From an uncultured Candidatus Saccharibacteria bacterium (GTDB taxonomy: Bacteria > Patescibacteriota > Minisyncoccia > 2-02-FULL-40-12 > GWA2-44-9): a stretch of DNA of 64,000 bases. The notes under the pieces were generated by a model that worked only from the letters and a program-made list of their open reading frames with translations, made no database searches and had not been told where the DNA came from. Each line of letters starts with the position of its first letter. Positions within the stretch are counted from its first letter, which is position 1. Positions 18,156 to 60,778 of this stretch are shown piece by piece. The translations under genes were made by a program, and so were the position numbers. The stretch is from positions 564,903-628,902 of the forward strand of contig CAZBFM010000001.1 of NCBI GenBank assembly GCA_964491455.1, written 5' to 3'.

Positions 18156-20846
18156 ATGAATTTTCGCAAGGCATCTTCTATTATTCTGCTTCTTCTGATC
18201 ATCATCTGGCCTCAACCAGCGCACGCATTTGGCGAGGGGGCGATGGCGACCGTTTTGAGCGTTTTTAATGCCGTCATTGAAATTATTCAAGCGGCAATTG
18301 TGAAGCTTCTTATTACGTCGGGTCAACTCCTTCAAGACGTCATCCATCTTGAGATGTCGTACGGGGGAGCAGCTGTCTATATGGTCTGGAAAATCTTTCG
18401 CGATATTTGCAATTCGCTGTTTATCATCTTTTTCATCATCATCGCCTTTAGTACCATCTTCAACTCTATCGCCCCGAAAGGCTTAAAGCCCTATTTCTGG
18501 AAGGAAGCGCTCACCAATGTCATCTTGGCTGCGATTTTGATTAATTTTAGTCTCCCCATTGGGCAGGCGATGATATGGGCTGGCAACGCATCTGGTAGCT
18601 ATATGCTCAAGGCAATAGGAGTTGGCGATTTTGGCAAAAAAATTGCCGAAAATCTCAATTTTGCCGCTGTCATTGCTGGAACAAGCGCACAGCAATATCC
18701 CACCGTTTCTGTAGACTTTCCGGAATCGAGCAATCTTTCCGCTGCCAACCTCACTGGCGTTCAGTCTTGGGTAGCTGCATCGCAATACGACACAGCACTT
18801 GGCCAGGCAGCACGCGCTGCAATACCCGTTATGAAAAAGTGTCTGGAAGCGAATCGTCCGCCAGTGGAATGCTACAACGAGGGAGTCGCTATGCATAAAA
18901 ATGAATTGATAGTTGCCGCCGACAAAGACGCCAAGGCAAAAGCGGCGGCGGAAAAAGCGCAAGCTGATTACGACGCTTGTATGAATCCATCATCGCCGAA
19001 TCGAGATAGCGTCGTCGTAAAAAATTGCGGTGAAAAACCACCTTCCGCTCCTAGCTCCGACTACCTAATGGACGCCGGGCAGTATACTCGTTTCTTTGGA
19101 TCTATGCTTCTCACTGGAAAGTGGGCAATCACCGCGCCCTCGGGCCCCACAGACTTAGACGGGCAGGTGAGTTTATTACTAAGTAATATCCTTCATCTCA
19201 TAATGATGCTTGCCATCGTATTGTCGTTTTCATCGATCATCATCTTCCAGGTTGCGCGTATTCCTGCGGGATGGTTTCTCCTCTCATCGTCGGCAATGGC
19301 ATTTTTTTCGATAGCTATGCCAGGCTCAACTCTCTTTGGTAAGTGGCGCGATAATATGATTGGATGGGCACTCTTTACGCCGCTCTATCTTTTTGTGATT
19401 TATATTGGATTGTTTGTGCTCGAACAACGAGGCACGCTTTTGGCAAGCATGAGCAACGCTCAGATGCCATTTTTCATGGGTAAACTGGGAATTGTACTCT
19501 TCTACTTCATCACGGCATTTATTTTCATGCGTGGTGCGAAGTGGGCACAAGAAACGGCATTCGGGTATAGCAAGATGGCGGGCACAGCATTTGGCGCAAT
19601 CGCGTCGAGGATGGGTGTCGATGAGAAGTCCAACTTTGGCCTCACAACAGCGGCGGGTGGTCTAGCGAAGTATTCTGGCGCACAAGGAGCCTACGAGTCC
19701 GTGAAAGCCACGGGCGAGGCACGCATCGCAAAGATGAAGCAGGGGATCTCTGACAGCTCGTTTTTGGCAATGCCTTCTTATTTGCGATCTAAAACCTATG
19801 CTGAAAAACTTGCTGAGGGCAAAGCCGCGATGGGAGTGCGCGGCGCGGATGCCGAAGTGGATAAATTCCTTCAAGAAAGGATCAAGGGTCACAAAGAAAG
19901 AATTGAATACGAGGCAGATAAAATCACTGATAAAACTAAGAAAACCGCCTATCTTCAATCTCAACTCAACAGCGGAAATCGCGATGTAGCGCTGGCCGCT
20001 GGCGAGATACTCCTCAAGCAAGGGAAGCTCACCCCAGCTCAAATCTCTATGCTTTCTGGTAAGTATGGAGACATTTCTCAGGTCGCTAAGAAAGAATTCC
20101 AGAAGCGAGTCACTGAGCAATCCAAGAAAGATGCGCGCAAATTGGTCCCAGCAAATTTTGCAGAACTACTAGAGCGCGTAAAAGTAGCTGGAAAATCAGA
20201 AGACAAACGGGCATTCCTTGAAGCTGGTTTATCAGGAGAGATAGGCCAGATGAAGCTATCCGGTGCAGACTTATTAGCGCTCACGGGTGAAATGGATAGC
20301 GTCGAAGACAAACGGGCATTCCTTGAAGCTGCCACTAAAACCGGCCGCAACAAAGTAACTGCCATTGAAACTATGGCCAACCTTGGGCTCATAACGGATC
20401 GAAATGGTGTTAAAACTTCTGCGGCTGAAGCGATTGAAGACCGTGCGAAATCTTTATCAGATGTAGATCTACTGGATGCAGAAGAGTACTTTCATGCCGG
20501 AGGGAAGCCCATGTCTCCAGTATTGAAGGAGAAAATGAAGCAATCAATTAAGAATCCGGAAAAGTTTGGTCAAATTATAAGAAACGTCTCGGGTCCAGAT
20601 CAGCAACTACGAATACTCGATGAATTTTCAGATATAAAACACGCTAGTTCAATTGCGCGACGGGACGTTAAAGAACTTGAAAAGAAAGAGCGGAAATACG
20701 CGAAAGGAATCAAGCAATTACAAAAGAAGGCTGATAAATTGGTCGGTGCTAAGAAGAAACGAATAGAAGACTGGATTGAGGATTTGGAGGTAAAACGAAG
20801 CGAAATGAAGGAAGAGATGCAGAAAAAGAAAAAAGAAATAACTTAA
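18156..20846 (+). CDS. polytopic membrane protein, VirB6/TrbL-like (putative), with Lys-rich coiled-coil C-terminus
   Basis: At least 7 predicted TM helices in the first ~480 aa, then a long charged or coiled-coil tail ending KKKKEIT. Lies 1.5 kb upstream of virB4. Confidence 0.45.
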   Translation: MNFRKASSIILLLLIIIWPQPAHAFGEGAMATVLSVFNAVIEIIQAAIVKLLITSGQLLQDVIHLEMSYGGAAVYMVWKIFRDICNSLFIIFFIIIAFSTIFNSIAPKGLKPYFWKEALTNVILAAILINFSLPIGQAMIWAGNASGSYMLKAIGVGDFGKKIAENLNFAAVIAGTSAQQYPTVSVDFPESSNLSAANLTGVQSWVAASQYDTALGQAARAAIPVMKKCLEANRPPVECYNEGVAMHKNELIVAADKDAKAKAAAEKAQADYDACMNPSSPNRDSVVVKNCGEKPPSAPSSDYLMDAGQYTRFFGSMLLTGKWAITAPSGPTDLDGQVSLLLSNILHLIMMLAIVLSFSSIIIFQVARIPAGWFLLSSSAMAFFSIAMPGSTLFGKWRDNMIGWALFTPLYLFVIYIGLFVLEQRGTLLASMSNAQMPFFMGKLGIVLFYFITAFIFMRGAKWAQETAFGYSKMAGTAFGAIASRMGVDEKSNFGLTTAAGGLAKYSGAQGAYESVKATGEARIAKMKQGISDSSFLAMPSYLRSKTYAEKLAEGKAAMGVRGADAEVDKFLQERIKGHKERIEYEADKITDKTKKTAYLQSQLNSGNRDVALAAGEILLKQGKLTPAQISMLSGKYGDISQVAKKEFQKRVTEQSKKDARKLVPANFAELLERVKVAGKSEDKRAFLEAGLSGEIGQMKLSGADLLALTGEMDSVEDKRAFLEAATKTGRNKVTAIETMANLGLITDRNGVKTSAAEAIEDRAKSLSDVDLLDAEEYFHAGGKPMSPVLKEKMKQSIKNPEKFGQIIRNVSGPDQQLRILDEFSDIKHASSIARRDVKELEKKERKYAKGIKQLQKKADKLVGAKKKRIEDWIEDLEVKRSEMKEEMQKKKKEIT

Positions 20847-20849: not shown

Positions 20850-21365
20850 ATGAATCCAGAGATAGTAGCCGAAAAAATACCAGCGCCGTTCATCTGTCTT
20901 TTGATGGGGAGGGACGCGGATGAACAATATCTGCTTTCTGCCGCTTTCCTAGCGCTCGATGATTCTGAGCAAGAGATTCTAGTCGGGGAAAGTACTGTCA
21001 AAGAAATTGCAACCTGGATTTCGAGTGGTTTATTACCTCAAACCCATGCGGTCGCGATAGCAAAAATCATAGGAATGCTAGCATTAGAAGACGACATCTC
21101 CCCGGGCGCACTTCCTCAAATTCTCGATAGCATCGGCATTCAATCTGCGGCAAAGTTAATTCTCTCTGAAAAGATAACTCAACTCGTTCAGCCATTCCTT
21201 GAAGACACGAACGAATTTGAACCCGAAACACCTCCTTCGCAGTCCCTTAATTCGACACCAACCATCGCGCCGCTGTCGCCGCTTAGAACATCGAAGCCTG
21301 TGCCCGTGCCACCTCCGCCAAACCGTACTACAATAGACCTACGAGATAAGAAATTAACACCGTGA
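20850..21365 (+). CDS. hypothetical protein (Pro-rich C-terminus)
   Basis: 171 aa, tightly packed between the TrbL-like and VirB3-like genes. Confidence 0.45.
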   Translation: MNPEIVAEKIPAPFICLLMGRDADEQYLLSAAFLALDDSEQEILVGESTVKEIATWISSGLLPQTHAVAIAKIIGMLALEDDISPGALPQILDSIGIQSAAKLILSEKITQLVQPFLEDTNEFEPETPPSQSLNSTPTIAPLSPLRTSKPVPVPPPPNRTTIDLRDKKLTP

Positions 21366-21679
21366 GATTTCAAGTCCCACAATTTATTGATACCGAGACC
21401 AAGCTCATTGGGCCTTTCACGTTAATGCAGTTTTTGTTTGTAGCTGGCGGCGTGAGCCTACTTTCGGTTGTGTGGATACTCTTCAACGGCATTTTGTTTG
21501 CCATTCTCGCGCTCCTCATCGCTGCATTTTTTGGCTCACTCGCATTCTTGCGTATCGATGGGCAGCCATTTCTCAATTATTTAGCCTACATGTTGGCGTA
21601 TGCGCTTGGCTCTAAGAGGGCAGTGTATCAAATCAAGCAGGAACCGAATCAATTTACTCCACCCACGCATGGCAACTGA
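21362..21679 (+). CDS. small two-TM membrane protein, VirB3-like (putative)
   Basis: 105 aa with two TM helices. Encoded immediately upstream of virB4 with an 11-nt overlap, as virB3 is in T4SS operons. Confidence 0.4.
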   Translation: MRFQVPQFIDTETKLIGPFTLMQFLFVAGGVSLLSVVWILFNGILFAILALLIAAFFGSLAFLRIDGQPFLNYLAYMLAYALGSKRAVYQIKQEPNQFTPPTHGN

Positions 21680-22307
21680 AACCTCTACAACCGATCTCAT
21701 TCAAATTCAGGAATTGCGTGATGGGGTGCTTATCCTTAAAGACGGGTCGTTACGCGCCGTGGTCAAGATATCGGCAATCAATTTTGAGCTTCGCTCAAGC
21801 GATGAACAGCAAGCAATCCTGCAGCAGTTTGGGGCGTTTATGAATTCCATTGATTTTCCAATACAAATGGTTGCTCATTCTCGTCGATTCGATATTACTA
21901 CCTACCTCGCTAATCTTGAATCGGCTACGCAAGGTCTCACCAACGACCTCCTGAAGGTGCAGTCGGGGGAGTATGCAAGATTTGTTCGCGAATTGTCAGA
22001 GCTCGCCAATATCATGCAAAAGAATTTCTACGTCGTACTCCCTATGGAGGTCACAGCAACATCCGAAAGTACGGGATTCTTTGGAGGCATCAAGGAGATG
22101 TTTAAGAAAACACAAAGAGCACAATCGCTCTCGTCAGACCAGCTCGCCCTGTTTCGCTCTCAGCTCCAGCAACGCGCTGACCTGATATTAGGAAGCGTCT
22201 CTGGTATGGGCCTGAAGGGCTCTATGCTTGAGCAGGAAGAGCTCGTAGCTCTGTTCAATGATGTCTACAACCCCGTTGTACCCGCCGCACCTCAACCTAA
22301 CGCGTAA
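21669..22307 (+). CDS. virB4: VirB4/TrbE N-terminal domain fragment (ends at in-frame TAA 22305-22307)
   Basis: IQIQELRDGVLILKDGSLRAVVKISAINFEL..QQAILQQFGAFMNSIDFPIQM matches the VirB4/CagE N-terminal domain. It is in the same frame as the following ATPase ORF. Confidence 0.6.
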   Translation: MATETSTTDLIQIQELRDGVLILKDGSLRAVVKISAINFELRSSDEQQAILQQFGAFMNSIDFPIQMVAHSRRFDITTYLANLESATQGLTNDLLKVQSGEYARFVRELSELANIMQKNFYVVLPMEVTATSESTGFFGGIKEMFKKTQRAQSLSSDQLALFRSQLQQRADLILGSVSGMGLKGSMLEQEELVALFNDVYNPVVPAAPQPNA

Positions 22308-22310
22308 CCT

Positions 22311-24056
22311 ATGGAACTACCACCTGTCGGAGTATCTACAACACTTGCGCCCTCGGCAATAAAAATATCGCCCAACTTTTTGCAGGTCGGCGACAAATAC
22401 GCACGAACCATCTTTATAGCGACCTATCCGAGATTCTTAAATGCCAACTGGCTCTCGCCCATAGTGAACCTTGATAAGGTGCTCGATGTTTCGATTTTCG
22501 TAACACCGCAATCGACCGCCACTATGCTCAAGCAGTTGCGCGACCAGCTCACTCGCGTGCAATCTCAACTCATGGAAGAAGAGTCGGCGGGAAAAGTGAG
22601 AAACCCCATGCTTGAAACGGCAGTCGGTGACTTGGAATCGCTGCGTGATAGCCTTCAACAGGGGACCGAGCGATTCTTCCAGGTTGGACTCTACGTCACC
22701 ATGTATGAAAACAGCCTCCACGACCTCGACGAAACAGAGGGGAAGATAAAAAGCATACTCGATGGCCTCCTCGTGATTCCTAAGCAGACATCGTTTCGGA
22801 TGCTGGAAGGTTTTCTCACTACCTCGCCACTGGCCGATGATCGCATCCGTGCATTGACCCCGCTCAATACTCAACCCATCTCGTCGATGTTCCCGTTTGT
22901 GTCCAGCGACCTTACTTCCAACACGGGTATTCTATACGGTATCAACACCACCAATAACAGCATGGTGATATTTGATAGGTTCTCGCTTGAAAACGCAAAC
23001 TCCGTCATGTTTGCAAAATCAGGAGCCGGAAAAAGCTACACGGTGAAGCTTGAGCTTCTTCGCTATCTCTATCTGGGAACGCAGGTTCTCGTCATTGACC
23101 CTGAAAATGAGTATGGCTTTTTAGCGGATACTGTCGGAGGCACCAACGTTATAATCTCCATCAATTCCGATCAGCATATTAATCCGTTTGATTTACCAAC
23201 ACCGAAAGACGAAGAGTCTTGGAGTGACGTATTTAATTCGCATATCCTAAACTTAGCCGGACTCATGAAGCTCATCATGGGAGGGGGACTCACGCCCGAA
23301 GAAGAATCCATGCTCGATGAGGCGCTCATTCAAACATATGCGATTAAAGATATTGTGCCCGATTCAGATTTCTCCAAGCTTCCACCGCCTATCCTTTCTG
23401 ATCTTCACAACATTCTCTCCGGCATCACCGGCGCGGAGCGGATGGCAACACGTTTGGAAAAGTTTACCACGGGTACCTTTGCGGGCTTCTTGAATCATCC
23501 GACCAATGTACCACTCGATAATAACCTCGTTGTATTTGGTCTTCGTGACTTAGAGGACGAGCTCCGTCCAATCGCGATGTATTCGGTGCTTAATTATATC
23601 TGGGCGCAGGTGCGTCGTATACGAAAGAAGCGAATTCTCGTGGTAGATGAGGCGTGGGTACTCATGAAATACCAGACCGGTGCAGAATTCTTATTCAATA
23701 TCGCAAAGCGTGGACGTAAGTATTACTGCGGACTCTCGACGATCAGCCAAGACATTCCCGACTTCATGTCCACGCCGCAGGGGAAGGCAATCGTCACCAA
23801 CTCATCGATGCAAATGCTCATGAAACAATCACCCGCTTCCATCGATATCATTCAGCAAACGTTCAACCTTACCGATTCTGAGAAATTCTACCTCCTGGAA
23901 GCACGCGTAGGCTTTGGATTGTTCTTCCTCGGCGCTAACCACGTGGGCCTGCGAGTAATGGCTTCGTACGCAGAAGATCAAATCATCACATCCGATCCTC
24001 GTCAGCTTCTCGAGATAGAGAAGGCAAAAGAGGAGTGGGCTAAAGTAGGCAATTAA
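22311..24056 (+). CDS. virB4: VirB4/TrbE/CagE-family type IV secretion ATPase (C-terminal ATPase part)
   Basis: Walker A FAKSGAGKSYTVK, Walker B ILVVDEAW, and VGDKYARTIFIATYP at the start of the middle domain. Confidence 0.85.
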   Translation: MELPPVGVSTTLAPSAIKISPNFLQVGDKYARTIFIATYPRFLNANWLSPIVNLDKVLDVSIFVTPQSTATMLKQLRDQLTRVQSQLMEEESAGKVRNPMLETAVGDLESLRDSLQQGTERFFQVGLYVTMYENSLHDLDETEGKIKSILDGLLVIPKQTSFRMLEGFLTTSPLADDRIRALTPLNTQPISSMFPFVSSDLTSNTGILYGINTTNNSMVIFDRFSLENANSVMFAKSGAGKSYTVKLELLRYLYLGTQVLVIDPENEYGFLADTVGGTNVIISINSDQHINPFDLPTPKDEESWSDVFNSHILNLAGLMKLIMGGGLTPEEESMLDEALIQTYAIKDIVPDSDFSKLPPPILSDLHNILSGITGAERMATRLEKFTTGTFAGFLNHPTNVPLDNNLVVFGLRDLEDELRPIAMYSVLNYIWAQVRRIRKKRILVVDEAWVLMKYQTGAEFLFNIAKRGRKYYCGLSTISQDIPDFMSTPQGKAIVTNSSMQMLMKQSPASIDIIQQTFNLTDSEKFYLLEARVGFGLFFLGANHVGLRVMASYAEDQIITSDPRQLLEIEKAKEEWAKVGN

Positions 24057-26661: not shown

Positions 26662-26675
26662 GTGGCAAGTATGCC

Positions 26676-27356: not shown

Positions 27357-27586
27357 GTGGAGTGTGTTTGTTGTGCTACAAAAAATGAGTGACAGCCAGC
27401 AAAACGTCGAACCGCTTTCATGGTGCCAATAACAACACCGTGATTTTCAATAACAGAATATGCGTACTCAGAACAGGTTGGCCATGAACAGCATCCCGAA
27501 TACGCCGGCAACAAAAAGGGAGTGGCCACGCCACTTCGCGTAATCGCTTGATACAATCGAATACCCCTCAGGAGGATGTCCTTCAT
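27353..27586 (-). CDS. yidD: membrane protein insertion efficiency factor YidD
   Basis: CxxxPSCSEY signature (CSWPTCSEYA). Confidence 0.85.
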   Translation of the reverse strand: MKDILLRGIRLYQAITRSGVATPFLLPAYSGCCSWPTCSEYAYSVIENHGVVIGTMKAVRRFAGCHSFFVAQQTHST

Positions 27587-27927
27587 GACTGAAGGATACC
27601 AGATTTCTTGAGTAGCAGCATTAGCGTTGCTTCGAGTTCATCCTGAGAGTTCGGCGTACTACGAACAGTAACAAGGAGGGAATAGCCTGTGCGTATTTTA
27701 TGCTGCGCAATGAGGTGTCTCATACATTCTAATACTTTTCGCTTCATCTCGTTTCTCATGTGCGCCTTTGCAATGCCGCTCGACGGCACCACAACAGCAA
27801 CTCTATAGTCTGCGGTAGTAGGCTGAATTCGTAAGGAAAATCCCAGCACATTACTAGGACGCGTGGAAGAAAACAGCGTTGAAATATCTTTTGCCCGCTT
27901 TAGACGATGTCGTTTTGGGAGTGCCAT
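27583..27927 (-). CDS. rnpA: ribonuclease P protein component
   Basis: Basic 114-aa protein (LPKRHRLKRAKD...), positioned between rpmH and yidD. Confidence 0.85.
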   Translation of the reverse strand: MALPKRHRLKRAKDISTLFSSTRPSNVLGFSLRIQPTTADYRVAVVVPSSGIAKAHMRNEMKRKVLECMRHLIAQHKIRTGYSLLVTVRSTPNSQDELEATLMLLLKKSGILQS

Positions 27928-27978
27928 AATGAGATATCCACTCTAACAGCACACCGCCCCTTGTTGGGGCGGTGTTGA

Positions 27979-28116
27979 CTACACAGAAAGACGTGCTCGT
28001 CCCTTTGATCTCCGACGGGCGAGAACCTTCCGACCTGACTTTGTTTCCATACGAGAAAGAAACCCATGTTTGCGGCTCCGTTTCAGTTTCTTTGGGCGAA
28101 AGCGTGTAATTTTCAT
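27979..28116 (-). CDS. rpmH: 50S ribosomal protein L34
   Basis: Hand-translated 45 aa [45 protein letters not shown]. Not in the ORF track because it is under 60 aa. Confidence 0.85.
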
Positions 28117-28325
28117 AGCGTCGTTGTGTGATATGCGCACGTAAGCGCTTCAGTGAGAAGTCTACTATGTTTGATCATGCGAGTCAATATTTACCCGCAG
28201 TTTTCCACCTGTTATAAACACTCTATCAACTTATTGAGGTTTACTGTTCGCTTGAGAGAGTTTCATAGGACTGTATACTGGCGACACATGAGAAGCACGC
28301 GTATGATTTTTCTAATTCGTAATTC

Positions 28326-29708
28326 ATGACCACTGTTGCGCCTGATGACATTTGGAAAACAGTGCTTGGTGAAATGGAACTCTCTCTTTCACGTGCGCAC
28401 TTCACCACGTGGTTCAAAAACACCAATGTGGTCACACGAGATCAAAATTCTGTGACCGTTAGCGTCCCGAATGGATTTGTGAAGGAATGGCTCGAGAGTA
28501 AATATAATCGTCAGATACTCACATCGATTCGAAAGCTCTCAAATGAGATCCGCGAAGTAAAGTATATCGTGGGACAACCAAAACCGGAGCCTCTCCGCCA
28601 AGATATATCGAAGATTATTAGCGAGAAGGAGTTTCAGGAGCAGGTTACCTATGATCAGAGTCAAGACGTTGATAAGGTTACTCATTTAAATAAGAAATAC
28701 TCATTTGATTCCTTTATTGTTGGTGGATCAAATGAATTCACCTTTGCATGTTCTCAAGCTGTTGCTGCAAATCCCGGGAAAAACTATAACCCGCTCTTCG
28801 TGTATGGGGGAGTTGGTCTTGGAAAGACCCACCTCATTCAATCAATTGGCAACCAAGTTCTGCAACAGTGGGGTGACAAGAAAGTCCTCTATACAACAGG
28901 CGAAAAACTCACTGCCACTATTGTTGAATCGATTAAAAATCGGACCGTGGAAGACGTGAAGACACAATACTCGAAACTCGACCTACTCATCATCGATGAT
29001 ATTCAGTATATCGCTGGCAAAGACAAGACACAGGAAATTGTATTCACGATTTTCAATGAACTTCACAATCGGAATAAGCAGGTAGTATGCACTTCTGATC
29101 GACCACCAAAAGCAATCCCAGCAATCACAGAGCGTCTCCAGTCTCGACTCGAAGGGGGGATGCTCGCGGAGATTAATATGCCAGACTACGAGACGCGATT
29201 AGCAATCTTAAAAACAAAGAGCCAAGAGAAAAATTGTCCACTGACCGACGAAGCCCTTTCGTATATTGCTACGCACATCCAAAAGAATGTACGAGAACTC
29301 GAGGGTGCTCTTAATAGAGTTATCGCCATAGCACAGATCTATAATCGAGTTCCTGACGTGAAAGAGATTAAGAACATTCTGAATGCATACCTTGCAGTGC
29401 CATATAGGAAGACGTCCCCGCAAGTAATACTCAAGACAGTCGCGGATTTCTTTACTATTCCTGTAGCAGACCTCACAAAACGTAGTCGCAAGAAAGAAGT
29501 TGTAAAGCCACGGCAAATTGCTATGTACTTACTACGAGAGGAAATAAAACTTTCATTCCCCGAAATCGGCCAGAAACTTGGCGGACGTGATCACTCAACC
29601 GTAATTCACGCGTGCGAGAAGATACGTCGAGAAGAAGGTGTTGATGAGCCACTCAAAAATGAGCTCACCATGATTCGACAGAGGATTTACGATTCGTTTG
29701 AGCACTAA
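28326..29708 (+). CDS. dnaA: chromosomal replication initiator DnaA
   Basis: AAA+ Walker A GGVGLGKTHL and the C-terminal DNA-binding domain (RQIAMYLLRE...GGRDHSTVIHA). Confidence 0.95.
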   Translation: MTTVAPDDIWKTVLGEMELSLSRAHFTTWFKNTNVVTRDQNSVTVSVPNGFVKEWLESKYNRQILTSIRKLSNEIREVKYIVGQPKPEPLRQDISKIISEKEFQEQVTYDQSQDVDKVTHLNKKYSFDSFIVGGSNEFTFACSQAVAANPGKNYNPLFVYGGVGLGKTHLIQSIGNQVLQQWGDKKVLYTTGEKLTATIVESIKNRTVEDVKTQYSKLDLLIIDDIQYIAGKDKTQEIVFTIFNELHNRNKQVVCTSDRPPKAIPAITERLQSRLEGGMLAEINMPDYETRLAILKTKSQEKNCPLTDEALSYIATHIQKNVRELEGALNRVIAIAQIYNRVPDVKEIKNILNAYLAVPYRKTSPQVILKTVADFFTIPVADLTKRSRKKEVVKPRQIAMYLLREEIKLSFPEIGQKLGGRDHSTVIHACEKIRREEGVDEPLKNELTMIRQRIYDSFEH

Positions 29709-29943
29709 TCTAATAACCTGTTGATGAATAGGTCTTATCTCTGTTGATAGAACGCCTTCAATGCTCCATGAAGAGGCGTATCCCTAAAAGAACCCACAGA
29801 TACTCCCCAGCTATCCCAAAGTTATACACACAGCGATTCCATTGATTCGTCAGAGCCTGTCAGGATTTTCTCACTACGTATCCCCATATCCACACCCTTA
29901 GTAGTATGTAGTAGTATTACATTATCTTCTTACTAATTATCCG
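29709..29943. promoter_or_regulatory. putative oriC region (dnaA-dnaN intergenic) with DnaA-box-like 9-mers and an AT-rich stretch
   Basis: TTATACACA (29822-29830) and ATATCCACA (29886-29894) each differ from TTATCCACA at one position. The AT-rich run gtagtattacattatcttcttactaattat follows. Genes to the left run on the minus strand and genes to the right on the plus strand. Confidence 0.5.
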
Positions 29944-31035
29944 ATGAAGATCACCGTACACAAAGAAAGGCTCCAGAGAGTACTTGGATTTGTCGAAAGA
30001 GTGACGTCCCGGAATGCGACGCTTCCTATTCTGAGTAATATTCTTTTGGTGACTGAAAATGGGAGATTACGTGTATCTGCCACAAACCTTGAAGTTGGTG
30101 TTAGTTCACTCATTGGTGCTAAGGTTGAACAAGAGGGGAAGATTGCGGTCCCTGCGAAGACACTATCTGATTTTATTCGGGGTGTTTCAGAGGAGAGTAT
30201 TAGTCTAGAGCTTCGTCAGCAAACACTCTTAGTTCGTGCAGGACGGTACCGAACGACCATCCTATGCTTTGATGCGTCCGAATACCCTATTATTCCTAAA
30301 ATCGATGGGGGCGACGTATTTGAGTTGCCCGTGGAGGACCTCAAACTTCTTATCGAAACCGTTTCTGATTCCATAGCTTCTACTGATTCACGACCTGAAC
30401 TCGCAGGTGCGTTTCTTCGTTTTGATACCAACGGCGTAACAATGGCTGCTACAGATATCTTCCGACTCGCTGAGCACAGTCGCCCTGGTGTGTTCACTCG
30501 TACTGCAACTGCGATCATTCCACGAGGTGCTATTCATGAGCTTGGGCGCATCCTTGGAGGTATCGAGGGTATGCTACAGATACGCCTCGCTGAAAACCAG
30601 GTGTCATTCTCACATGATGAGTTTGAGGTTATCTCAAGGCTTATTGACGGAAAGTATCCTGATTACAAAAAGATTATTCCTGAGCACTCGCTTGCAAGAG
30701 TTCTCGTTCGACGTGATGAGATTGAGAATGCAGCAAAAGTAGCGGCACTCTTTTCTTCAAGTATTTCCGATATCAAGATAGAGTGCTCCAGTGAAGAGAT
30801 TTCAATTAGTGGCAAGAATTCCAGTAAGGGCGAGGCATTCGCTGGAGTGGAATCGAATTTAAAAGGGGAGTCATTTGATGTCTCGATGAATTTTCATTAC
30901 TTCCTCGATGGATTAAAGGTTATTCCTAGTGATAAGGTAGTCATGGAGTATACAGGTAAGGGGAGTCCGTTTGTGCTTCGACCAAACGCGGATGATACAC
31001 ATATTGTGTATTTGATTATGCCCTTAAGGAATTAG
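29944..31035 (+). CDS. dnaN: DNA polymerase III beta sliding clamp
   Basis: 363 aa with the typical N-terminus MKITVHKERL...LPILSNILL. Confidence 0.9.
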   Translation: MKITVHKERLQRVLGFVERVTSRNATLPILSNILLVTENGRLRVSATNLEVGVSSLIGAKVEQEGKIAVPAKTLSDFIRGVSEESISLELRQQTLLVRAGRYRTTILCFDASEYPIIPKIDGGDVFELPVEDLKLLIETVSDSIASTDSRPELAGAFLRFDTNGVTMAATDIFRLAEHSRPGVFTRTATAIIPRGAIHELGRILGGIEGMLQIRLAENQVSFSHDEFEVISRLIDGKYPDYKKIIPEHSLARVLVRRDEIENAAKVAALFSSSISDIKIECSSEEISISGKNSSKGEAFAGVESNLKGESFDVSMNFHYFLDGLKVIPSDKVVMEYTGKGSPFVLRPNADDTHIVYLIMPLRN

Positions 31036-37492: not shown

Positions 37493-39178
37493 TTAACCTA
37501 GCACTCTATGAATCTCCTCGATTGATGTGACTCCATCAATCAACTTTAGGTACCCGTCTTGCACCATCGTGACCATCCCTTCTTTGATTGCCAGGTCACG
37601 AATGTCTGTAACGGATGCCTCGTCTAAAATAAGTCGCTCCATAGCTCTGGTCACTTCAAACACCTCATACACTCCCACACGACCCTTGTAGCCGATTGAA
37701 TTGCACTCTGCGCACCCGCCAGGTCCATACAATGTCACGGTATCGAGCTTTGGAAGAGAGAATCGCTCCGCGATAGGGGAGATCTGTGCTGAGAGTTTTT
37801 GGGAATCTGCCTCCGAGAGTGTGACTGGTTTTTTGCAGTGTTCGCAAAGACGGCGAACGAGTCGTTGACCCATCGCCATTGTGAGCGCTGGGGCGACTGT
37901 GTCCGGCCGAACGCCGATATCAACGAGACGAGGTATGGTGCCAGCGGCGTCGTTAGTGTGAATCGTTGAGAGCACCATGTGACCCGTGAGAGCGGCTTCA
38001 AGGGCGATACTCGCTGTTTCGAGGTCGCGGATTTCACCGATGAGAATAATGTCGGGGTCTTGTCGTACGATTGCGCGTAGCCCTCCCGCGAATGTATAGC
38101 CCTTCGATGGTTCTACTTGGGTTTGGTTGACTCCCTTGATGTGATACTCGATAGGATCTTCCACGGTGATGATCTTCATATCGGGAGTGTTGAGGAAGTT
38201 CAAAAATGCATAGAGTGTCGTGGTTTTTCCAGAACCTGTGGGTCCGGTGGTGAGGAGGGTGCCTTGTGGGCGCGCGAGCAGTTCTTTCACTTTCTCGAGT
38301 ACGTCAGTACGCATGCCAAGGTCTTCAAGTTTTGCTTGAATGCCACGAGGGTCGAGCAAGCGCATCACAATAGACTCACCATATTCACTCGGAAGAACAG
38401 AAACACGAACTTCGATAGCGATGTCACTTTGACGGATGGTGAATCGGCCATCTTGCGGCGCCTTGGTGATGTTGAGCTTCATCTTGGAGAGCACTTTAAC
38501 GCGGCTCAACACGCGCTGATATCGCTCCTTATCAATTGTAGCGACTTCATGGAGAAGACCATCGAGACGATAGCGGAGACGTACAAGGTCTGATTCTGGT
38601 TCGAAGTGAATATCCGACGAGCGAGTCGCGAGTGCGCCAGCGATGAGCATTTCAAATAATTCAGTGACGGGAATATCAGCGAGCTTTGTTTTGATATCGG
38701 TGATAGTCTTGATTGACTGTGATGCTTTTGCAAGCGCGGCGTCATCAACATCAATAGCGCCCACCTCGAATACATCAGCGGTGGTGATGGTCGCGTAGCG
38801 TTGCCAAATCGACTCCATGGTGCGGAGGTCTACGATGAGGATCTTATTGGTGGGATATTGAGTGGTAATACTCGAAATGACCTCTTGCGCCTCTGGTGTG
38901 CGTGGGTCGAGCGCGGCAATTATCGCTGTCGCTGCTTGTACTTGAATGAGCGCAACGCCAGATGCGCGAGATTGGCTTTCTGGTACGTGCTTGAGAGCTG
39001 ATTGGTCTACAAGGAGTGCGTGAGAATCGAGAAAGGGCAAGCCAAGTTCTGTGGCGAGAGCTTGCGCGGTGCGAGTTTGCTCGTGTTCACTGATCTGTGC
39101 GAGCTTCTTATCGAGCTCAGCCGAGGCGTTGTTGGTGGTAGGGGGGACGGTGTTCGTCGACATATCTGAAGCCACCAT
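37493..39178 (-). CDS. pilB: GspE/PilB-family secretion ATPase (type IV pilus assembly ATPase-like)
   Basis: Walker A TGPTGSGKTT, Asp box, Walker B ILIGEIRD, and the C-terminal tetracysteine (CEHC...CAEC). Confidence 0.85.
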   Translation of the reverse strand: MVASDMSTNTVPPTTNNASAELDKKLAQISEHEQTRTAQALATELGLPFLDSHALLVDQSALKHVPESQSRASGVALIQVQAATAIIAALDPRTPEAQEVISSITTQYPTNKILIVDLRTMESIWQRYATITTADVFEVGAIDVDDAALAKASQSIKTITDIKTKLADIPVTELFEMLIAGALATRSSDIHFEPESDLVRLRYRLDGLLHEVATIDKERYQRVLSRVKVLSKMKLNITKAPQDGRFTIRQSDIAIEVRVSVLPSEYGESIVMRLLDPRGIQAKLEDLGMRTDVLEKVKELLARPQGTLLTTGPTGSGKTTTLYAFLNFLNTPDMKIITVEDPIEYHIKGVNQTQVEPSKGYTFAGGLRAIVRQDPDIILIGEIRDLETASIALEAALTGHMVLSTIHTNDAAGTIPRLVDIGVRPDTVAPALTMAMGQRLVRRLCEHCKKPVTLSEADSQKLSAQISPIAERFSLPKLDTVTLYGPGGCAECNSIGYKGRVGVYEVFEVTRAMERLILDEASVTDIRDLAIKEGMVTMVQDGYLKLIDGVTSIEEIHRVLG

Positions 39179-56240: not shown

Positions 56241-57569
56241 ATGAATATTACATCTATCCTTACCGACTCACGAAAGCTCACCTATATACTGGGCGCCTCG
56301 ATCGCGCTCTTGGTTTTTTTGGCGTTTTTATTCGTGCTCTCTAATTCCCTTGGTAATAGCACGGCCATATCTGCTGACCTCGTAGTGTGGGGGGTGTTTG
56401 ATGATGCCGCAGCTTTTCAAGAGTCTATCAGCGCATTTGAGGGTGCCAATAAGGGTATTAAAGTTTCGTACAAAATGTTTAAGCCGCAAGAGTATGAGCA
56501 GGCGGTGCTCAACGCGCTCGCAGCTGGAACGGGTCCAGATGTCTGGATGATTCATCATACGTGGCTTCCTAAGCACGCGGACAAACTCATCTCGATGCCG
56601 GCGGTTGCACCGGGACAAAAGGGGCCACTGATGACGCTGCGACAGTATCAGGATTTGTTTGTAGATGTTGCGCAGCAAGATCTCGTTGTTGACGGCAAGA
56701 TTTACGGGATGCCGCTGTACGTCGATACGCTTGCGCTCTACTACAACAAGGATATATTTGCGTCTTCGGGTATCGCTCAACCACCTGCGACATGGGCGAC
56801 CTTTTTGGACGACGTAAAAAAGATCACAACCTATGATGACAGCAGGAACATCACACGATCCGCGGTAGCCCTGGGAACAGCCCGCAATATTAATCGCGCA
56901 ACCGATATATTGATGATGCTTATGTTGCAATCTGGCGTGCGCATGACTGATGCTGACAATGCACAGGCTTCATTTGCTCGAGCCGTCGACGGTACTCCCG
57001 TGGGAGAAAACACGCTACAATTCTTTACTGATTTCGCAAATCCTCAGCGAGTATCATACACGTGGAACGATTCGATGGATTACTCGTTTGATGCTTTTAT
57101 TGCGGGCACAACAGCGATGATGATCAACTACGAGCACCAAATCCCGGCGCTGCGAAAGGCAGCCCCACGACTTCATTGGGCTGTTGCGCCTGTGCCTCAA
57201 GCATCGCTTGCTGATGTCCGTACCTATGCAAACTATTGGCCACTTGTTGTTTCGGCAAAAACAAAGTCTCCGGATGCTGCATGGAGCTTTGTGCATTACA
57301 TGACGGCCGGGGATGGCGCGATTGCGTATTTGAATGCATCAGGACGGCCTGCGGCTCGCAAGGATCTCATCGAACAGCAGAAGTCGGATCCCGATCGAGG
57401 GGTGTTTGCTGAGCAGGCATTATCTGCGCGATCGTGGTATCAGGTTGACTCGGCAGCGATAGAAACAATTTTTGCCGAGATGATTGACGGTGTAAATCTT
57501 GGAAAACAAACAATATCACAGGCATTGAAGGCCGCAGATGCGCGCGTGTCTGTGTTGATGTCGCGCTAA
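56241..57569 (+). CDS. ABC transporter extracellular solute-binding protein (family 1, sugar-type)
   Basis: N-terminal TM or signal and the family-1 fold. No permease or ATPase is adjacent. Confidence 0.7.
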   Translation: MNITSILTDSRKLTYILGASIALLVFLAFLFVLSNSLGNSTAISADLVVWGVFDDAAAFQESISAFEGANKGIKVSYKMFKPQEYEQAVLNALAAGTGPDVWMIHHTWLPKHADKLISMPAVAPGQKGPLMTLRQYQDLFVDVAQQDLVVDGKIYGMPLYVDTLALYYNKDIFASSGIAQPPATWATFLDDVKKITTYDDSRNITRSAVALGTARNINRATDILMMLMLQSGVRMTDADNAQASFARAVDGTPVGENTLQFFTDFANPQRVSYTWNDSMDYSFDAFIAGTTAMMINYEHQIPALRKAAPRLHWAVAPVPQASLADVRTYANYWPLVVSAKTKSPDAAWSFVHYMTAGDGAIAYLNASGRPAARKDLIEQQKSDPDRGVFAEQALSARSWYQVDSAAIETIFAEMIDGVNLGKQTISQALKAADARVSVLMSR

Positions 57570-57578: not shown

Positions 57579-58742
57579 ATGAAAGGATTACGCTTACCAT
57601 TACTCTTCATAGCGATTATCGGGTTGGCTCTTGGGCCTACGGTGGTTTCTGCGGCTGATTTTCTTCCTATCGTAAAATGCGGAGCAACAGGGCAGGCGCC
57701 ATGTACGCCGTGCGATATTTTTGGATCGCTCAAGAATATTATCGATTTTATTCTCAAGGGAGTTACAGGTCCGGTCGCTGCGTTTATGATTGTCTATTCT
57801 GGCGGCATGATGCTTCTGGGTGGAGGGAAACCCGAACTCTATAGTGAGGGCAAGAAGATGCTCACGAACACACTTATTGGTGTCACGATCATTCTGCTTG
57901 CGTGGGTAGTGACTAATTTCTTGATTCGCGCACTCATGCCGGGAGTGTCGACGGGCTCGTCTTGGTTTGAGTTTTCGTGTCCTGCGAGCTTATCTGCTAT
58001 CGCACCAATCGACACGACGCTGCCAAGTCCAGTTCCTAGTACAGCGGCTGACGGCTCCACTCCTGCTGCGCCCCCAACCACGAAGCCTTCGTATGCGGGT
58101 ATCTTGTGCCCAATTAGTGACAAGATAAATACATGCAGCACAGACTATGTGTGCCAAGGATGTCCAGAGTATAGAAATGCTGGATATTTTACAAAATATG
58201 GTGCAGACGCGAGAATCCTCGAGGCCATCATGGCAGTGGAGTCCTCCTGCGGAAGCGCGGGGTCGTTGGTGAGTAGTGCGCAAGCTTACGGTATAATGCA
58301 GCTTAAGACAGACACTGCCAATAAGCATGTGCAGCAGTGTCAGATCTATAAGCTGGGGGATGACGGTCAGCCACTACGAAATACAAAAACAGGACAATTT
58401 GTGTATGAGACGATTACTCCTGCGTGGTTGCTAAATAAAAATAACTTCGAAAAAAGTGTTTGCTTGGCAGCGATGGAGGTGCGCGCGGTCAAGGGCATAT
58501 GCAACAATGATATTCGAAATATTGCCGCTGGATATAATTCTGGACCTGGATGGTGCAAGATTAGCAAGGACTGTGCACAAATGCCGAGTTGTGGGGGTGG
58601 TGTGATGCGCGCCTGGGAGTGTCCATGGGATAACGCAACGCACACTGTATGTAACGAAACCCGTGAAGGTGGGGGGCTCATTGAAACGAAGCGGTACGCA
58701 CCGAAGGTCGCGACGCTAGCAACCTGCGCAAATCCAAAATGA
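57579..58742 (+). CDS. fusion of an N-terminal pilin-like two-TM domain (paralog of the 59365-60672 array) with a C-terminal SLT lytic transglycosylase domain
   Basis: N-terminus VYSGGMMLLGGGKPELYSEGKKMLTNTLIGVTIILLAWVV aligns with the four downstream paralogs. C-terminus has EAIMAVESSCGS...YGIMQL (SLT catalytic Glu-Ser and the GxMQ motif). Confidence 0.65.
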   Translation: MKGLRLPLLFIAIIGLALGPTVVSAADFLPIVKCGATGQAPCTPCDIFGSLKNIIDFILKGVTGPVAAFMIVYSGGMMLLGGGKPELYSEGKKMLTNTLIGVTIILLAWVVTNFLIRALMPGVSTGSSWFEFSCPASLSAIAPIDTTLPSPVPSTAADGSTPAAPPTTKPSYAGILCPISDKINTCSTDYVCQGCPEYRNAGYFTKYGADARILEAIMAVESSCGSAGSLVSSAQAYGIMQLKTDTANKHVQQCQIYKLGDDGQPLRNTKTGQFVYETITPAWLLNKNNFEKSVCLAAMEVRAVKGICNNDIRNIAAGYNSGPGWCKISKDCAQMPSCGGGVMRAWECPWDNATHTVCNETREGGGLIETKRYAPKVATLATCANPK

Positions 58743-59350
58743 AATATCTCCTGGTAATCGTTCTAGTGTCTGGATTGTTCATGCCTTTGTTGGCGTATGC
58801 TGAGAGCCTCTCCTACGATGAGGCGTATGGTAATTATTTGTATCAGTTTCACTTGAGCGTCTCGGGCACAACCCTGACGAGCAATGAGATCTACGATATC
58901 TTGACCGGGGATGTGCCAGCGATTCCTCGAGGCGATTGGTCGGTGATGGTCACTAATAGTCGCGGCGAAAAATTGTATTCGCAATTCTTCGACGCAGCGA
59001 AGCTTGCAGCTCAAGGCGGAGACTTTACCATTCCGTATCAAAATAGTGGAACAGAGGCGATTTTTAAAAACAGTACTGGCGTTACCGCTCTCTCTATTGA
59101 TTTAACGGGCAGTAGGGTGTGCGATGATAATGGAGTATGCTACGCAGACGCTGGAGAGAACTCTTATAACTGTCCCGGTGACTGTGGAGCTATAGCAGCG
59201 CAGCCTGCGCTGCAAGTGGCCACCGTTGGTGCTCAGATCCCGCTGTCGAGTAGGATTGGGGAGGTTGTGATGAAGCTGGCATTTGGGGTGGCGGGTATCC
59301 TTATAATCACCGGCGTTGCGCAATCGCTGGACAGGCGCCGAAGGGCATAG
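58739..59350 (+). CDS. secreted protein with C-terminal TM anchor and RRRR tail
   Basis: Signal peptide. C-terminus is LAFGVAGILIITGVAQSLDRRRRA. 4-nt overlap with the upstream gene. Confidence 0.5.
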   Translation: MKYLLVIVLVSGLFMPLLAYAESLSYDEAYGNYLYQFHLSVSGTTLTSNEIYDILTGDVPAIPRGDWSVMVTNSRGEKLYSQFFDAAKLAAQGGDFTIPYQNSGTEAIFKNSTGVTALSIDLTGSRVCDDNGVCYADAGENSYNCPGDCGAIAAQPALQVATVGAQIPLSSRIGEVVMKLAFGVAGILIITGVAQSLDRRRRA

Positions 59351-59364
59351 GATAATGACGAGGC

Positions 59365-59637
59365 ATGGCTTCTTACTCTATCGTTAATCCTCTTGGAGTT
59401 GATAATCTAGAAGATATTTTTAAGCTTCTTAGTGGGCGTTTGTTGGATGTCGTGATTCCTATTGCTGTGCTGCTCTATCTGTATGCGGGCTTTCTGTTGC
59501 TCACTGCAGCTGGGAATACTAAGAAAGTAGATGAGGCTAAGACTACATTCAAGAATACCTCGCTAGGTCTGTTGGTCATTTTAATTGGAGCTGGATTCGT
59601 CGATTTGATACGAAGCATTCTCAATGCGACTACCTAA
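59365..59637 (+). CDS. small two-TM pilin-like protein (TrbC/VirB2-like, paralog 1)
   Basis: 90 aa with two TM helices and a central charged loop (NTKKVDEAKTTFKNTSLG). Confidence 0.55.
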   Translation: MASYSIVNPLGVDNLEDIFKLLSGRLLDVVIPIAVLLYLYAGFLLLTAAGNTKKVDEAKTTFKNTSLGLLVILIGAGFVDLIRSILNATT

Positions 59638-59932
59638 TACACTATTGTCGGGAGTAACACTTACTGCTGCTGGAAGCAGTGGCTTTACCTACGATAAGCT
59701 CATTGCAATCCTCAATAATCTTGGTGATACGTTTCGTGCCTTTGGGCTGACATTGGCTACAGCCGTGGTGGTGTATTATGGATTTCAGATGGCTCTTTCA
59801 CGGGGCGATGCTGCAAAGTTTACCAAAGCAAAAGAGCACCTCATGATCGCAGCTCTGGGTGCAGCTATTGTATTTGGGATCGATACTATTATTGCAACTG
59901 TTCGGTATTTTGCGGACACGCTTACAAGCTAA
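59624..59932 (+). CDS. small two-TM pilin-like protein (paralog 2)
   Basis: VVVYYGFQMALSRGDAAKFTKAKEHLMIAALGAAIVFG. Confidence 0.55.
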   Translation: MRLPNTLLSGVTLTAAGSSGFTYDKLIAILNNLGDTFRAFGLTLATAVVVYYGFQMALSRGDAAKFTKAKEHLMIAALGAAIVFGIDTIIATVRYFADTLTS

Positions 59933-59952
59933 TTTTCTGATATACTTATTTT

Positions 59953-60300
59953 ATGAAACTCAAGCATATACTTTCGATCCAAGTCGCAATAGGAGCGCTC
60001 TTGACCATGACTTCATCGATTGTCCTAGCTGCCGGGGAGGCCCTAACACTTGAAAAGGTGGTTGGGCTCATTACCGACGGCATTACTGTCTTGATTGGGC
60101 TTGCAGTGACGGTGACCATCGGCATTCTCGTATATGGAGGATTTCAGATGGCGTATTCACGTGGAGAAAAAAAAGATTTCGATGCGGGAAAAGAGACTAT
60201 TAAAAATGCATCCATTGGTTTATTGGTCATCTTGGGGGTTGGAATAATAATCGCTACAATAAGCAGTATCGCGCAGAATCCATCGAGTATTGTGCGCTAG
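59953..60300 (+). CDS. small two-TM pilin-like protein (paralog 3)
   Basis: Signal peptide and ILVYGGFQMAYSRGEKKDFDAGKETIKNASIGLLVILGVG. Confidence 0.55.
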   Translation: MKLKHILSIQVAIGALLTMTSSIVLAAGEALTLEKVVGLITDGITVLIGLAVTVTIGILVYGGFQMAYSRGEKKDFDAGKETIKNASIGLLVILGVGIIIATISSIAQNPSSIVR

Positions 60301-60315
60301 AAGGGGGGTGCTACT

Positions 60316-60672
60316 ATGAAAAACATAAAACAATATATTTCTGTATTAGGGACGGCGCTAGCATCAACAGTTACAGCACATGCTGCGCAGTTGGGTTTAC
60401 CCAAGGCACCGGCAACGGGCACTACAACAGCATTGACTGGTCAAGGGGTTGTCAATATAATCACGGATGCTGTTAATTTGCTTGTTGGAGTTAGTACGGT
60501 GATTGCGGTTGGTGTGTTTGTGTACGGAGCAATTTTGTTCACTCTTCTTGAGAAAGCAGATGATGGAAAGAAAAAGATGCAGAATGCTGCATGGGGGTTG
60601 TTTTGGATTTTAGCGATAGGTCTTGGTATCAACACTATTTCTGAGTTGATCAAAAGAGGTCTCGCTATATAG
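60316..60672 (+). CDS. small two-TM pilin-like protein (paralog 4)
   Basis: Signal peptide and VFVYGAILFTLLEKADDGKKKMQNAAWGLFWILAIGLG. Confidence 0.55.
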   Translation: MKNIKQYISVLGTALASTVTAHAAQLGLPKAPATGTTTALTGQGVVNIITDAVNLLVGVSTVIAVGVFVYGAILFTLLEKADDGKKKMQNAAWGLFWILAIGLGINTISELIKRGLAI

Positions 60673-60701
60673 CCGGGTAGTATTCATAGCTATGAATAAC
60701 C

Positions 60702-60726
60702 AAAAACCCGCTCTGCGGGTTTTTGG
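60702..60726 (+). terminator. intrinsic terminator after the pilin-like array
   Basis: AAACCCGC-tct-GCGGGTTT followed by TTT. Confidence 0.7.
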
Positions 60727-60778
60727 TTTGTAGTCGATCGCCCTCTTTCATACATACAGAATATTGAGTGGCCACGTG

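Follow-up and report, generated by a model that had tools for sequence, protein, structure and literature searches.

Four tandem VirB2/TrbC-like genes and a pilin-transglycosylase fusion form a conserved set of probable type IV secretion system subunits in a Paceibacteria-type Patescibacterium

Tandem arrays of genes for VirB2-like pilins are an established feature of type IV secretion systems (T4SS) in Patescibacteria. A recent survey, which defined an array as two or more VirB2-like genes in tandem or with one non-pilin gene between them, counted 441 such arrays in 383 assemblies, with 2–11 genes each, a mean identity of 25% and a maximum identity of 54%, and found their abundance to be highest in Microgenomatia and Saccharimonadia (Quiñonero-Coronel et al. 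2025, PMC12102498). Published examples include the array in the T4SS cluster of Southlakia epibionticum ML1 (PMC10633639) and the "Sec secreted array" of Nanosynbacter lyticus TM7x. The predicted pilins within the S. epibionticum cluster are essential, as the T4SS and array are for epibiotic growth (Wang et al. 2023, PMC10633639), T4SS-pilin-domain proteins are among the most highly expressed unknown genes in enrichment cultures of Patescibacteria (Ca. Yanofskybacteria and relatives) (PMC10936435), and a 2025 review still treats a pilus in these monoderms as only a possibility (PMC12857230). Here we report an analysis of an array of four small genes, which we call pil1 to pil4, located at positions 59,365 to 60,672 of a 64-kb stretch of contig CAZBFM010000001.1 (the window), together with an upstream gene whose product joins a pilin-like N-terminal module to an SLT domain (the fusion). 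Our conclusion is that pil1–pil4 and the N-terminal module of the fusion are probably a fixed set of five VirB2/TrbC-like (PF18895) hairpin subunits of a chromosomal monoderm-type T4SS in a Patescibacterium of the class Paceibacteria.

Since tandem VirB2-like arrays in Patescibacteria have already been published (Wang et al. 2023; Quiñonero-Coronel et al. 2025), this locus is an ordinary, well-preserved example of them. Like those arrays, it consists of small tandem genes of the PF18895 type whose products are ~25–40% identical, in a genome with a monoderm VirB4/TrsD/PrgI system near dnaA. Four of the genes stand in direct tandem and the fifth pilin module, that of the fusion, lies one gene away. 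Pairwise identity among the five modules is 26–40% in local alignments and 17–31% to pil1 in a global MAFFT alignment of pil1–pil4 with the first 124 residues of the 387-residue fusion, and the window itself encodes the VirB4 ATPase, with TrsD-like and PrgI-family proteins, near dnaA. Unlike them, it is not inside the T4SS cluster, and it belongs to a Paceibacteria-type genome, a close relative of which (GCA_017992005.1) is designated "Candidatus Pacebacteria/Paceibacterota". It further differs from published arrays in its linkage to the pilin-SLT fusion, to a 203-residue anchored protein and to a solute-binding protein (SBP), and it goes beyond them in having positional orthologues across divergent genomes and a conserved layout of promoter, Shine-Dalgarno (SD) sequence and terminator. 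We found no mention of the pilin-SLT fusion in PMC12102498.

The first important finding is the family to which these genes belong. A preliminary description of this DNA had listed four consecutive genes and matched them to the small TrbC/VirB2-like conjugative-pilin fold rather than to type IV pilins. Translations confirm the four open reading frames (ORFs), on the + strand and exactly at the coordinates given there, and a profile hidden Markov model (HMM) search bears out the assignment: all four products match Pfam PF18895 (T4SS_pilin), with E values of 3.8e-6 to 8.9e-5, as does the N-terminal module of the fusion (E 3.4e-8). The PF18895 gathering score of 26.6 bits is exceeded by pil2 (27.3 bits) and by the fusion module (33.9 bits). 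Matches to PF04956 (TrbC/VirB2), the cutoff of which is 27.9 bits, are all under that cutoff (pil2 22.5 bits, E 1.3e-4; fusion 16.7 bits; pil3 14.6 bits, E 0.038), and pil1 and pil4 have no match in the same scan. On these scores, pil1–pil4 are related to PF04956 pilins at clan level and are not members. Thirty relatives emerged from a profile search of 5.8 billion proteins, and nearly all of them had a precomputed PF18895 match. When the five modules of the window and 25 of these relatives were scanned one by one, 30 out of 30 matched PF18895 (E ≤ 0.01, best 8.5e-13) and seven of the same 30 matched TrbC (best E 1.2e-7), so that the HMM similarity to classical pilins is weak but reproducible. 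The positional orthologues in the related genomes L004–L006 also carry precomputed PF18895 matches. A HMMER scan of 1.84 billion cluster representatives recovered 107,678 family members at E ≤ 1e-3; the PF18895-type family is very large. A link to conjugative plasmids was rejected, as tblastn of pil2 against 72,556 plasmids gave one match, at chance level (E 0.9). The top family matches (P0093–P0242) contain 2–17 pilin hairpins in series per polypeptide, with P0095 reaching 1775 residues and 17 such stretches; these could be true poly-pilins, or tandem genes that gene callers have joined in recoded (UGA-sense) candidate phyla radiation (CPR) lineages.

Weaker matches extend over the hairpin to two NCBIfam models, NF045849 (the Mbov_0395/MMCAP2_0565 family) and NF045890 (pLS20_p028), with E values of 3.6e-4 for pil1, 8e-4 for pil3 and 1e-3 for pil2 and scores of ~20 bits against curated cutoffs of 40 and 150. 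The proteins of these two models, from a mycoplasma integrative and conjugative element and from pLS20, are pilin-like and, as in the present set, accompany a monoderm-type VirB4, the scores being a lead and not evidence of membership. This likeness hints that VirB2-like hairpins may also occur in ordinary monoderm conjugation systems, from which they are usually said to be absent.

The four genes are also paralogues of one another and of the fusion module. In Smith-Waterman comparisons, nine of the ten pairs formed by pil1–pil4 and the fusion N-domain scored above all 500 composition-preserving shuffles (z 5–19), the only weak pair being pil2–pil4 (z 1.5). On this sequence comparison, the paralogy of pil1–pil4 is beyond chance. 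The alignment of the five modules that the preliminary description had proposed reveals a common layout: the N-terminus varies, the hydrophobic helix after it has V-Y-x-G at its end, and a short charged loop connects this to another hydrophobic helix. The N-domain of the fusion is the fifth pilin paralogue. The invariant positions are the Tyr, one Lys of the loop and one Gly of the second helix, and nothing else. Hydropathy likewise places two hydrophobic helices around a short Lys/Arg-containing loop, with a net charge of +1 to +2, in all five modules. An AlphaFold2 model of pil3 has helices at residues 3–26, 33–67 and 73–108 (mean pLDDT 79.5, ~87–94 in the hairpin core), consistent with a signal-peptide helix followed by a long helical hairpin. 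Other details of the first description need amending. The architecture of two transmembrane segments holds for the hairpin of all four proteins, and the N-terminal signal attributed to them is clear only in pil3 and pil4. The "Y-G-G-F/M-(Q)M core" is literal in pil3 alone, with pil2 having YYGFQM, pil1 YAGFLL and pil4 YGAILF.

Signal peptides are distributed unevenly. From sequence and hydropathy, they are clear in pil3, pil4 and the fusion and absent in pil1, and pil2 has a weak 16-residue extension. Orthologues preserve part of this pattern: those of pil1 (88–94 residues, with a conserved NPLG motif near the N-terminus) are leaderless in seven of seven genomes, and those of pil4 (117–119 residues) have a signal peptide in every genome examined. 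At positions 2 and 3, N-terminal extensions have been gained or lost between genomes. The pil3 orthologues of L004, L006, L009 and L010 are without signal peptide: there is no in-frame start codon upstream of pil3 in L004 and L006, and the pil3 genes of L009 and L010 are equally short (92–94 residues). As the preliminary description had stated from the translations, no class III prepilin leader is present in any of the four, none of which has a short basic leader that ends in Gly and precedes F/M-T-L-x-E with Glu at +5, and no type IV pilus Pfam domain was matched. The distances from the array to VirB4 (22311–24056), ~35 kb, and to PilB (37493–39178), ~20 kb, had also been given correctly. The PilB gene stands by itself between ruvB and nusA, and there are no pilin genes in its vicinity. 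A type IV pilin handled by PilB was rejected on these two counts, the missing class III leader and the isolation of PilB.

The resemblance to classical pilins, and its limits, can thus be specified. Like VirB2 of Agrobacterium, TrbC of RP4 and TraA of F, the five modules are small and have two hydrophobic helices around a short basic loop; three of them have a predicted Sec-type signal peptide, and a VirB4 and a VirB1-like transglycosylase are encoded in the genome. Unlike those diderm systems, the host is a monoderm without VirB5 or VirB7–10, neither a cyclase nor an acetylase is in evidence, the helices are longer (~35 residues each), some members are leaderless and there are five paralogues instead of one. 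As a functional analogy only, the locus recalls the sets of major and minor pilins in type IV pili and type II secretion systems, where a conserved operon likewise encodes several divergent paralogues that presumably play different parts in a single fibre; the proteins described here differ from those in fold and family and in the lack of a class III leader.

The second important finding is that the set is fixed. In L001, L004, L005 and L006 the gene order is gyrA, methyltransferase, SBP, fusion, ~200-residue gene, four small genes, hsp20, prsW, valS and tsaD, the array being the tail of a block formed by the SBP, fusion and 203-residue protein genes and pil1–pil4, and the shorter contigs L002, L009 and L010 keep the core of the same locus. 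Exactly one fusion and four small pilin ORFs are present in each of L004, L005, L006, L009 and L010, synteny and gene number also hold in L001 and L002, and the fusion is 41–46% identical to that of the window in L004–L006 and 41–54% identical across the relatives checked. In a neighbour-joining tree of 25 pilin modules from five genomes, the modules form five clades by array position, not by genome, with pil2 falling in the position-2 clade. It follows that the paralogues are older than the divergence of these lineages and that each has been retained. Judged from this tree, pil1–pil4 and the fusion module are old paralogues and a fixed set of different subunits; their positional clustering and retention argue that their roles are distinct and non-redundant and that the copies are neither interchangeable nor of recent diversification.

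This bears directly on an idea that the preliminary description had favoured, namely that diversified tandem copies represent variable surface filament subunits. Several divergent tandem virB2-like genes in one genome are also known from Bartonella, Anaplasma and Rickettsia, where the paralogues have been interpreted as antigenic or host-range variants. An equivalent system here, with four interchangeable surface subunits diversifying to match hosts or to escape recognition, would be in keeping with the low identity within the array, with the presence in metagenomes of several further alleles of each position and with host-range adaptation as a possibility raised for such arrays (PMC12102498). 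It would also be in keeping with the comparison between the window and L001, whose GyrA proteins are 99.6% identical. In this pair, no other part of a 14-kb syntenic block has diverged as much as the array, where nucleotide identity is 68–89% against mostly 87–99% in the rest; precisely at the tRNA-Leu gene, it is back to 98%. The island of divergence spans 59396–60744 in the window and 9443–10790 in L001. Identity between orthologues is 92% for pil1, 91% for pil2, 82% for pil3 and 77% for pil4, and fourfold-degenerate sites differ at 54% in the array as against 19% in the flanks (Fisher p = 6e-22). However, the synonymous divergence (dS) rises from ~0.2–0.5 in the flanks to at least 0.6 in the array (it is saturated for pil4) and the ratio of nonsynonymous to synonymous divergence is low, 0.06–0.12 for pil1–pil3, a combination that points to recombinational replacement by a diverged allele set and not to faster adaptive change in place. 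Furthermore, the excess is absent in a second close pair, L004 and L009, which argues for one recombination-like event and not for a property of the locus, and general hypervariability of the array was rejected for the same reason. No tandem repeats were found at the array, nor direct or inverted repeats between copies or an invertible segment, the only inverted repeat found being the terminator, and an HMM built from the five modules detected no extra or silent copy in any reading frame of the window. An A8 homopolymer at 60167–60174, in the loop-coding part of pil3 where it encodes EKKD, is absent from the L001 orthologue and is, from this comparison, probably incidental and not a slippage switch. 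The check for phase-variable repeats that the preliminary description had suggested was therefore negative, and phase variation was rejected, there being no tandem, direct or inverted repeats and the A8 run not being kept in L001. With four small pilins in all seven loci, clustering by position over five genomes whose fusion proteins have diverged to 41–54% identity and no homopolymer switches kept in relatives or silent cassettes, we regard a variation system as very unlikely. The copies studied here, unlike those of Bartonella, Anaplasma and Rickettsia, are ancient, position-specific and individually conserved, with no variation mechanism found.

A third feature of the locus is a conserved arrangement of expression signals (Table 1). 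The promoter-like element upstream of pil1 is found as TGGACA-17-GATAMT in seven of seven genomes, with an invariant -10 GATAMT that ends 8 nt before the ATG in the window and 6–8 nt before it across the seven; its -35 overlaps codons of the upstream gene that specify the conserved LDRRRR tail, and conservation of the -35 is thus not independent evidence. An extended -10 element, TG.TATACT, precedes pil3 in six genomes and ends 6–7 nt before the ATG. Such short distances to the start codons of pil1 and pil3 suggest two promoters that would produce leaderless or near-leaderless pil1-pil2 and pil3-pil4 mRNAs. The 14-nt overlap of pil1 and pil2 suggests translational coupling of pil2 to pil1; the gaps between pil2 and pil3 and between pil3 and pil4 are 20 and 15 nt, respectively. 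The SD sequence of pil4 conforms to an invariant pattern, GAA(A/G)GG(G/A)GGTG, in seven of seven genomes, 5–6 nt before the ATG, and no canonical SD is present at the other six genes of the locus, including those for the SBP, the fusion and the 203-residue protein. We therefore propose pil4, from this signal, as the candidate most-translated subunit and candidate major pilin. The array is closed by a terminator hairpin with a folding energy of -24.7 kcal/mol (z -4.9), beyond which lies a tRNA-Leu gene on the - strand, and L001, L004, L005 and L006 have equivalent hairpins with a U-tract after pil4 and different stem sequences.

Table 1. Features of the window discussed in the text, in order of position.
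Feature	Positions	Strand	Description and support
Polytopic membrane protein	18156..20846	+	896 residues, long hydrophilic C-terminal part; VirB6-like by position and topology (sequence reading)
PrgI family (VirB3-like) small membrane protein	21362..21679	+	PF12666, E 7.1e-10, above cutoff
TrsD-like protein	21600..22307	+	Resembles VirB4 N-terminal domain; NCBIfam matches below curated cutoffs
VirB4-type ATPase	22311..24056	+	P-loop_TraG E 1.5e-20, AAA_10, DUF87
Membrane-anchored solute-binding protein	56241..57569	+	SBP_bac_1/8, Pfam E 2e-33
Pilin-SLT fusion	57579..58742	+	387 residues; above Pfam cutoff for SLT (E 7.6e-9) and for T4SS_pilin (E 3.4e-8)
203-residue protein of unknown function	58739..59350	+	4-nt overlap with fusion gene
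Promoter-like element upstream of pil1	59328..59356	+	TGGACA, 17-nt spacer, GATAAT; scan score 10/12
pil1	59365..59637	+	90 residues; VirB2-like hairpin without signal peptide; PF18895 E 2.4e-5
pil2	59624..59932	+	102 residues; VirB2-like hairpin; short, weakly hydrophobic N-terminal extension; PF18895 E 3.8e-6
Extended -10 promoter-like element	59938..59946	+	TGaTATACT; ends 6 nt before pil3 ATG
pil3	59953..60300	+	115 residues; predicted signal peptide of ~26 residues, then VirB2-like hairpin; PF18895 E 7.6e-5
Strong Shine-Dalgarno sequence	60300..60310	+	GAAGGGGGGTG; 5 nt upstream of pil4 ATG
pil4	60316..60672	+	118 residues; predicted signal peptide (AHA|AQ), then VirB2-like hairpin; PF18895 E 8.9e-5
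Intrinsic-terminator hairpin	60698..60728		14-bp perfect stem, 3-nt loop, U-tract; closes array

Which machinery handles these subunits had been left unclear in the preliminary description. This question can now largely be answered by inference, because the window holds, by gene content, a Patescibacteria/MPF-FATA-type T4SS by dnaA, though there is no direct adjacency to the array. The VirB4 ATPase, presumed to be the motor of the T4SS that handles the pilins, lies 4 kb from the rnpA/yidC/dnaA/dnaN group (26.7–31 kb), and the secretion cluster (21362–24056) abuts a run of genes at 26203–31035 comprising a jag-like KH/R3H gene, yidC, rnpA, dnaA and dnaN. The GC skew changes sign in this origin region, where dnaA is at 28326. 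An RrnaAD/KsgA-type methylase at 14629–15588 precedes these genes, giving the neighbourhood reported by Quiñonero-Coronel et al. (2025, PMC12102498), who found Patescibacteria T4SS often near dnaA/dnaN/rnpA/ksgA. Separation of pilin and ATPase genes is common in their data: among VirB4-positive Patescibacteria assemblies with VirB2-like genes, a pilin gene was near virB4 in 1,135 of 1,948 and not near it in ~40% (PMC12102498). Within the cluster, the TrsD-like protein matches the NCBIfam models VirB4_plasma (E 8.5e-10), CD1110 (6e-7) and TrsD (7.8e-7), with its true start probably a Met near 21669, and the 896-residue membrane protein has no Pfam or NCBIfam match. Among those genes of the window that were scanned, neither a relaxase nor a coupling protein was noticed, a further likeness to the published arrays.

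The product of the fusion gene consists of a signal peptide, a T4SS_pilin hairpin (residues ~44–119), a disordered linker rich in Pro, Ser and Thr (~123–170) and a VirB1-like lytic transglycosylase domain, a layout with which an AlphaFold2 model agrees. The top Foldseek matches of the C-terminal domain are all lytic transglycosylases (Slt, MltE, Slt70), and a comparison of 22 homologues shows little or no variation at the catalytic-type residues E221-S222, M240-Q241 and Y319-N320. Approximately 35 full-length homologues (P0031–P0064) are 38–54% identical to it, most with both PF18895 and PF01464. A separate group of proteins of 330–370 residues has the pilin N-module in common with the fusion and a different C-terminal part. 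The combination of small proteins with two transmembrane segments and an adjoining SLT-domain enzyme, whose SLT domain weakly matches phage lytic proteins in PHROGs, could also suggest a lysis or cell-wall-remodelling cassette unrelated to the T4SS, made of holin-like proteins and a murein hydrolase and possibly derived from a phage. We consider this scarcely credible. PHROGs contain no holin or lysis match for the four genes, even at E ≤ 1, and a holin or phage origin of the four was rejected; the resemblance that the preliminary description had given as an example of what would refute a pilin interpretation was thus not found. Moreover, in the relatives whose contigs are long enough (L001, L004, L005 and L006) the locus keeps its place between gyrA and valS, no phage genes flank it, and its similarity in Pfam and NCBIfam is to T4SS and conjugation pilins.

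The remaining two genes of the block encode the SBP and the 203-residue protein. The SBP, whose start at 56241 was set from orthologues of 442–443 residues, has an N-terminal membrane anchor. Its gene directly precedes that of the fusion in the window as well as in L001, L002, L004, L005 and L006, it may be co-transcribed with the pilin locus, and there is no gene for an ABC permease or ATPase near it. The 203-residue protein has a signal peptide, a domain of ~100 residues, a four-Cys motif (C.DNG.C.ADAGE...NCP.DCG) and a C-terminal transmembrane anchor with the LDRRRR tail, and has no Pfam, PHROG or NCBIfam match. Positional homologues in L004–L006 are 35–41% identical to it, with 40 invariant columns. 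A homologue search returned near-identical sequences only, and the family has been seen only in Paceibacterota-type metagenome-assembled genomes. Two more distant relatives, L011 (Ca. Yanofskybacteria), at 1455–3837, and L012, at 3157–8727, each have a gene resembling that for the 203-residue protein followed by genes for pilin-domain proteins, of 127–356 residues in L011 and of 148–919 residues in L012. Pilins of such different sizes suggest that the layout of four small genes is specific to one clade.

Several findings count against T4SS pilins and have to be set beside those above. The scores of pil1 (24.7 bits), pil3 (23.1 bits) and pil4 (22.9 bits) are 2–4 bits under the PF18895 gathering cutoff; the family profile matched no solved T4SS pilin among PDB sequences, and Foldseek against the PDB was uninformative on such a link. 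The array is not adjacent to virB4 and in this clade is always linked to the SBP and the SLT enzyme. To our knowledge, no Patescibacterium has been observed with a pilus built of these proteins, whose assembly into a filament and dependence on VirB4 we only propose. In contrast to classical VirB2/TraA/TrbC propilins, pil1 has no signal peptide, and in pil2 and pil3 its presence varies. Large extra domains or series of 2–17 hairpins are common in the family, which fits a membrane-anchor module equally well.

These last points lead to another explanation, in which the PF18895 hairpin is mainly a membrane-anchor or channel-lining module, forming membrane or wall channel parts of the T4SS or organising enzymes such as the SLT protein at the surface, with no extracellular pilus. 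One paralogue is indeed joined through a disordered linker to a lytic transglycosylase, the pilin N-domain is all that the group of 330–370-residue proteins shares with the fusion, the top family matches string many hairpins on one polypeptide, signal peptides are missing at three positions in several genomes, and monoderm T4SS are generally described as pilus-less (PMC12102498, PMC12857230). Such an anchor or channel is less easily reconciled with the HMM similarity to TrbC/VirB2 pilins, with the essentiality of the S. epibionticum pilin genes, which are inside its T4SS cluster, or with the view of reviewers in the field, who favour a pilus-like structure that is unproven (PMC10633639, PMC12857230). 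The strong conserved SD sequence of pil4, moreover, suggests one subunit made in excess, as would be expected for a polymer. We regard this explanation as the main rival, though as rather unlikely.

If pil1–pil4 and the fusion module are T4SS subunits, as we think probable, a mechanism can be outlined. By topology rules, each hairpin would insert in the cytoplasmic membrane with both termini out and the basic loop inside. The products of pil3, pil4 and the fusion gene would use Sec and signal peptidase, and leaderless pil1, possibly with pil2, might depend on YidC-type insertion. By analogy with established T4SS biology, the VirB4 ATPase would then extract the hairpins and polymerise them into a short pilus or a wall-spanning conduit, for which the SLT domain may open the peptidoglycan locally in the manner of VirB1. 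The five paralogues would have different roles, with one abundant subunit, plausibly pil4, and accessory subunits that are not interchangeable variants. On the model of Southlakia epibionticum, the structure may serve host-cell contact or exchange rather than conjugation. A more elaborate version, which we think improbable, is a heteropolymeric fibre of all five paralogues in a monoderm, with pil4 as its bulk and pil1–pil3 as accessory subunits, in which the fusion is incorporated via its pilin module and displays the SLT domain on a flexible linker of ~50 residues to cut the peptidoglycan of the host, or its own, at the contact site. Were this true, the pilus would carry a device that drills through walls and serves epibiotic attachment or uptake, and signal-peptide-free insertion would be a new biogenesis route for VirB2-type subunits.

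Whether the T4SS of a wall-bearing bacterium with a single membrane can build a pilus is the question raised by the 2023–2025 work on Patescibacteria, and the locus described here gives no answer to it. What it adds are increments: a fixed positional orthology of four genes plus one in a Paceibacteria clade, a conserved layout of promoter, SD sequence and terminator, leaderless members and a widespread pilin-SLT fusion. These provide comparative detail that is useful for experiments, because a fixed set of five paralogues argues for distinct roles, the sole strong ribosome-binding site designates a candidate major pilin, some members are leaderless and one pilin module is covalently tied to an enzyme that cuts the cell wall. 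For annotation, small "hypothetical" genes of this type in CPR genomes can be given the name T4SS pilin-like, including those located far from virB4.

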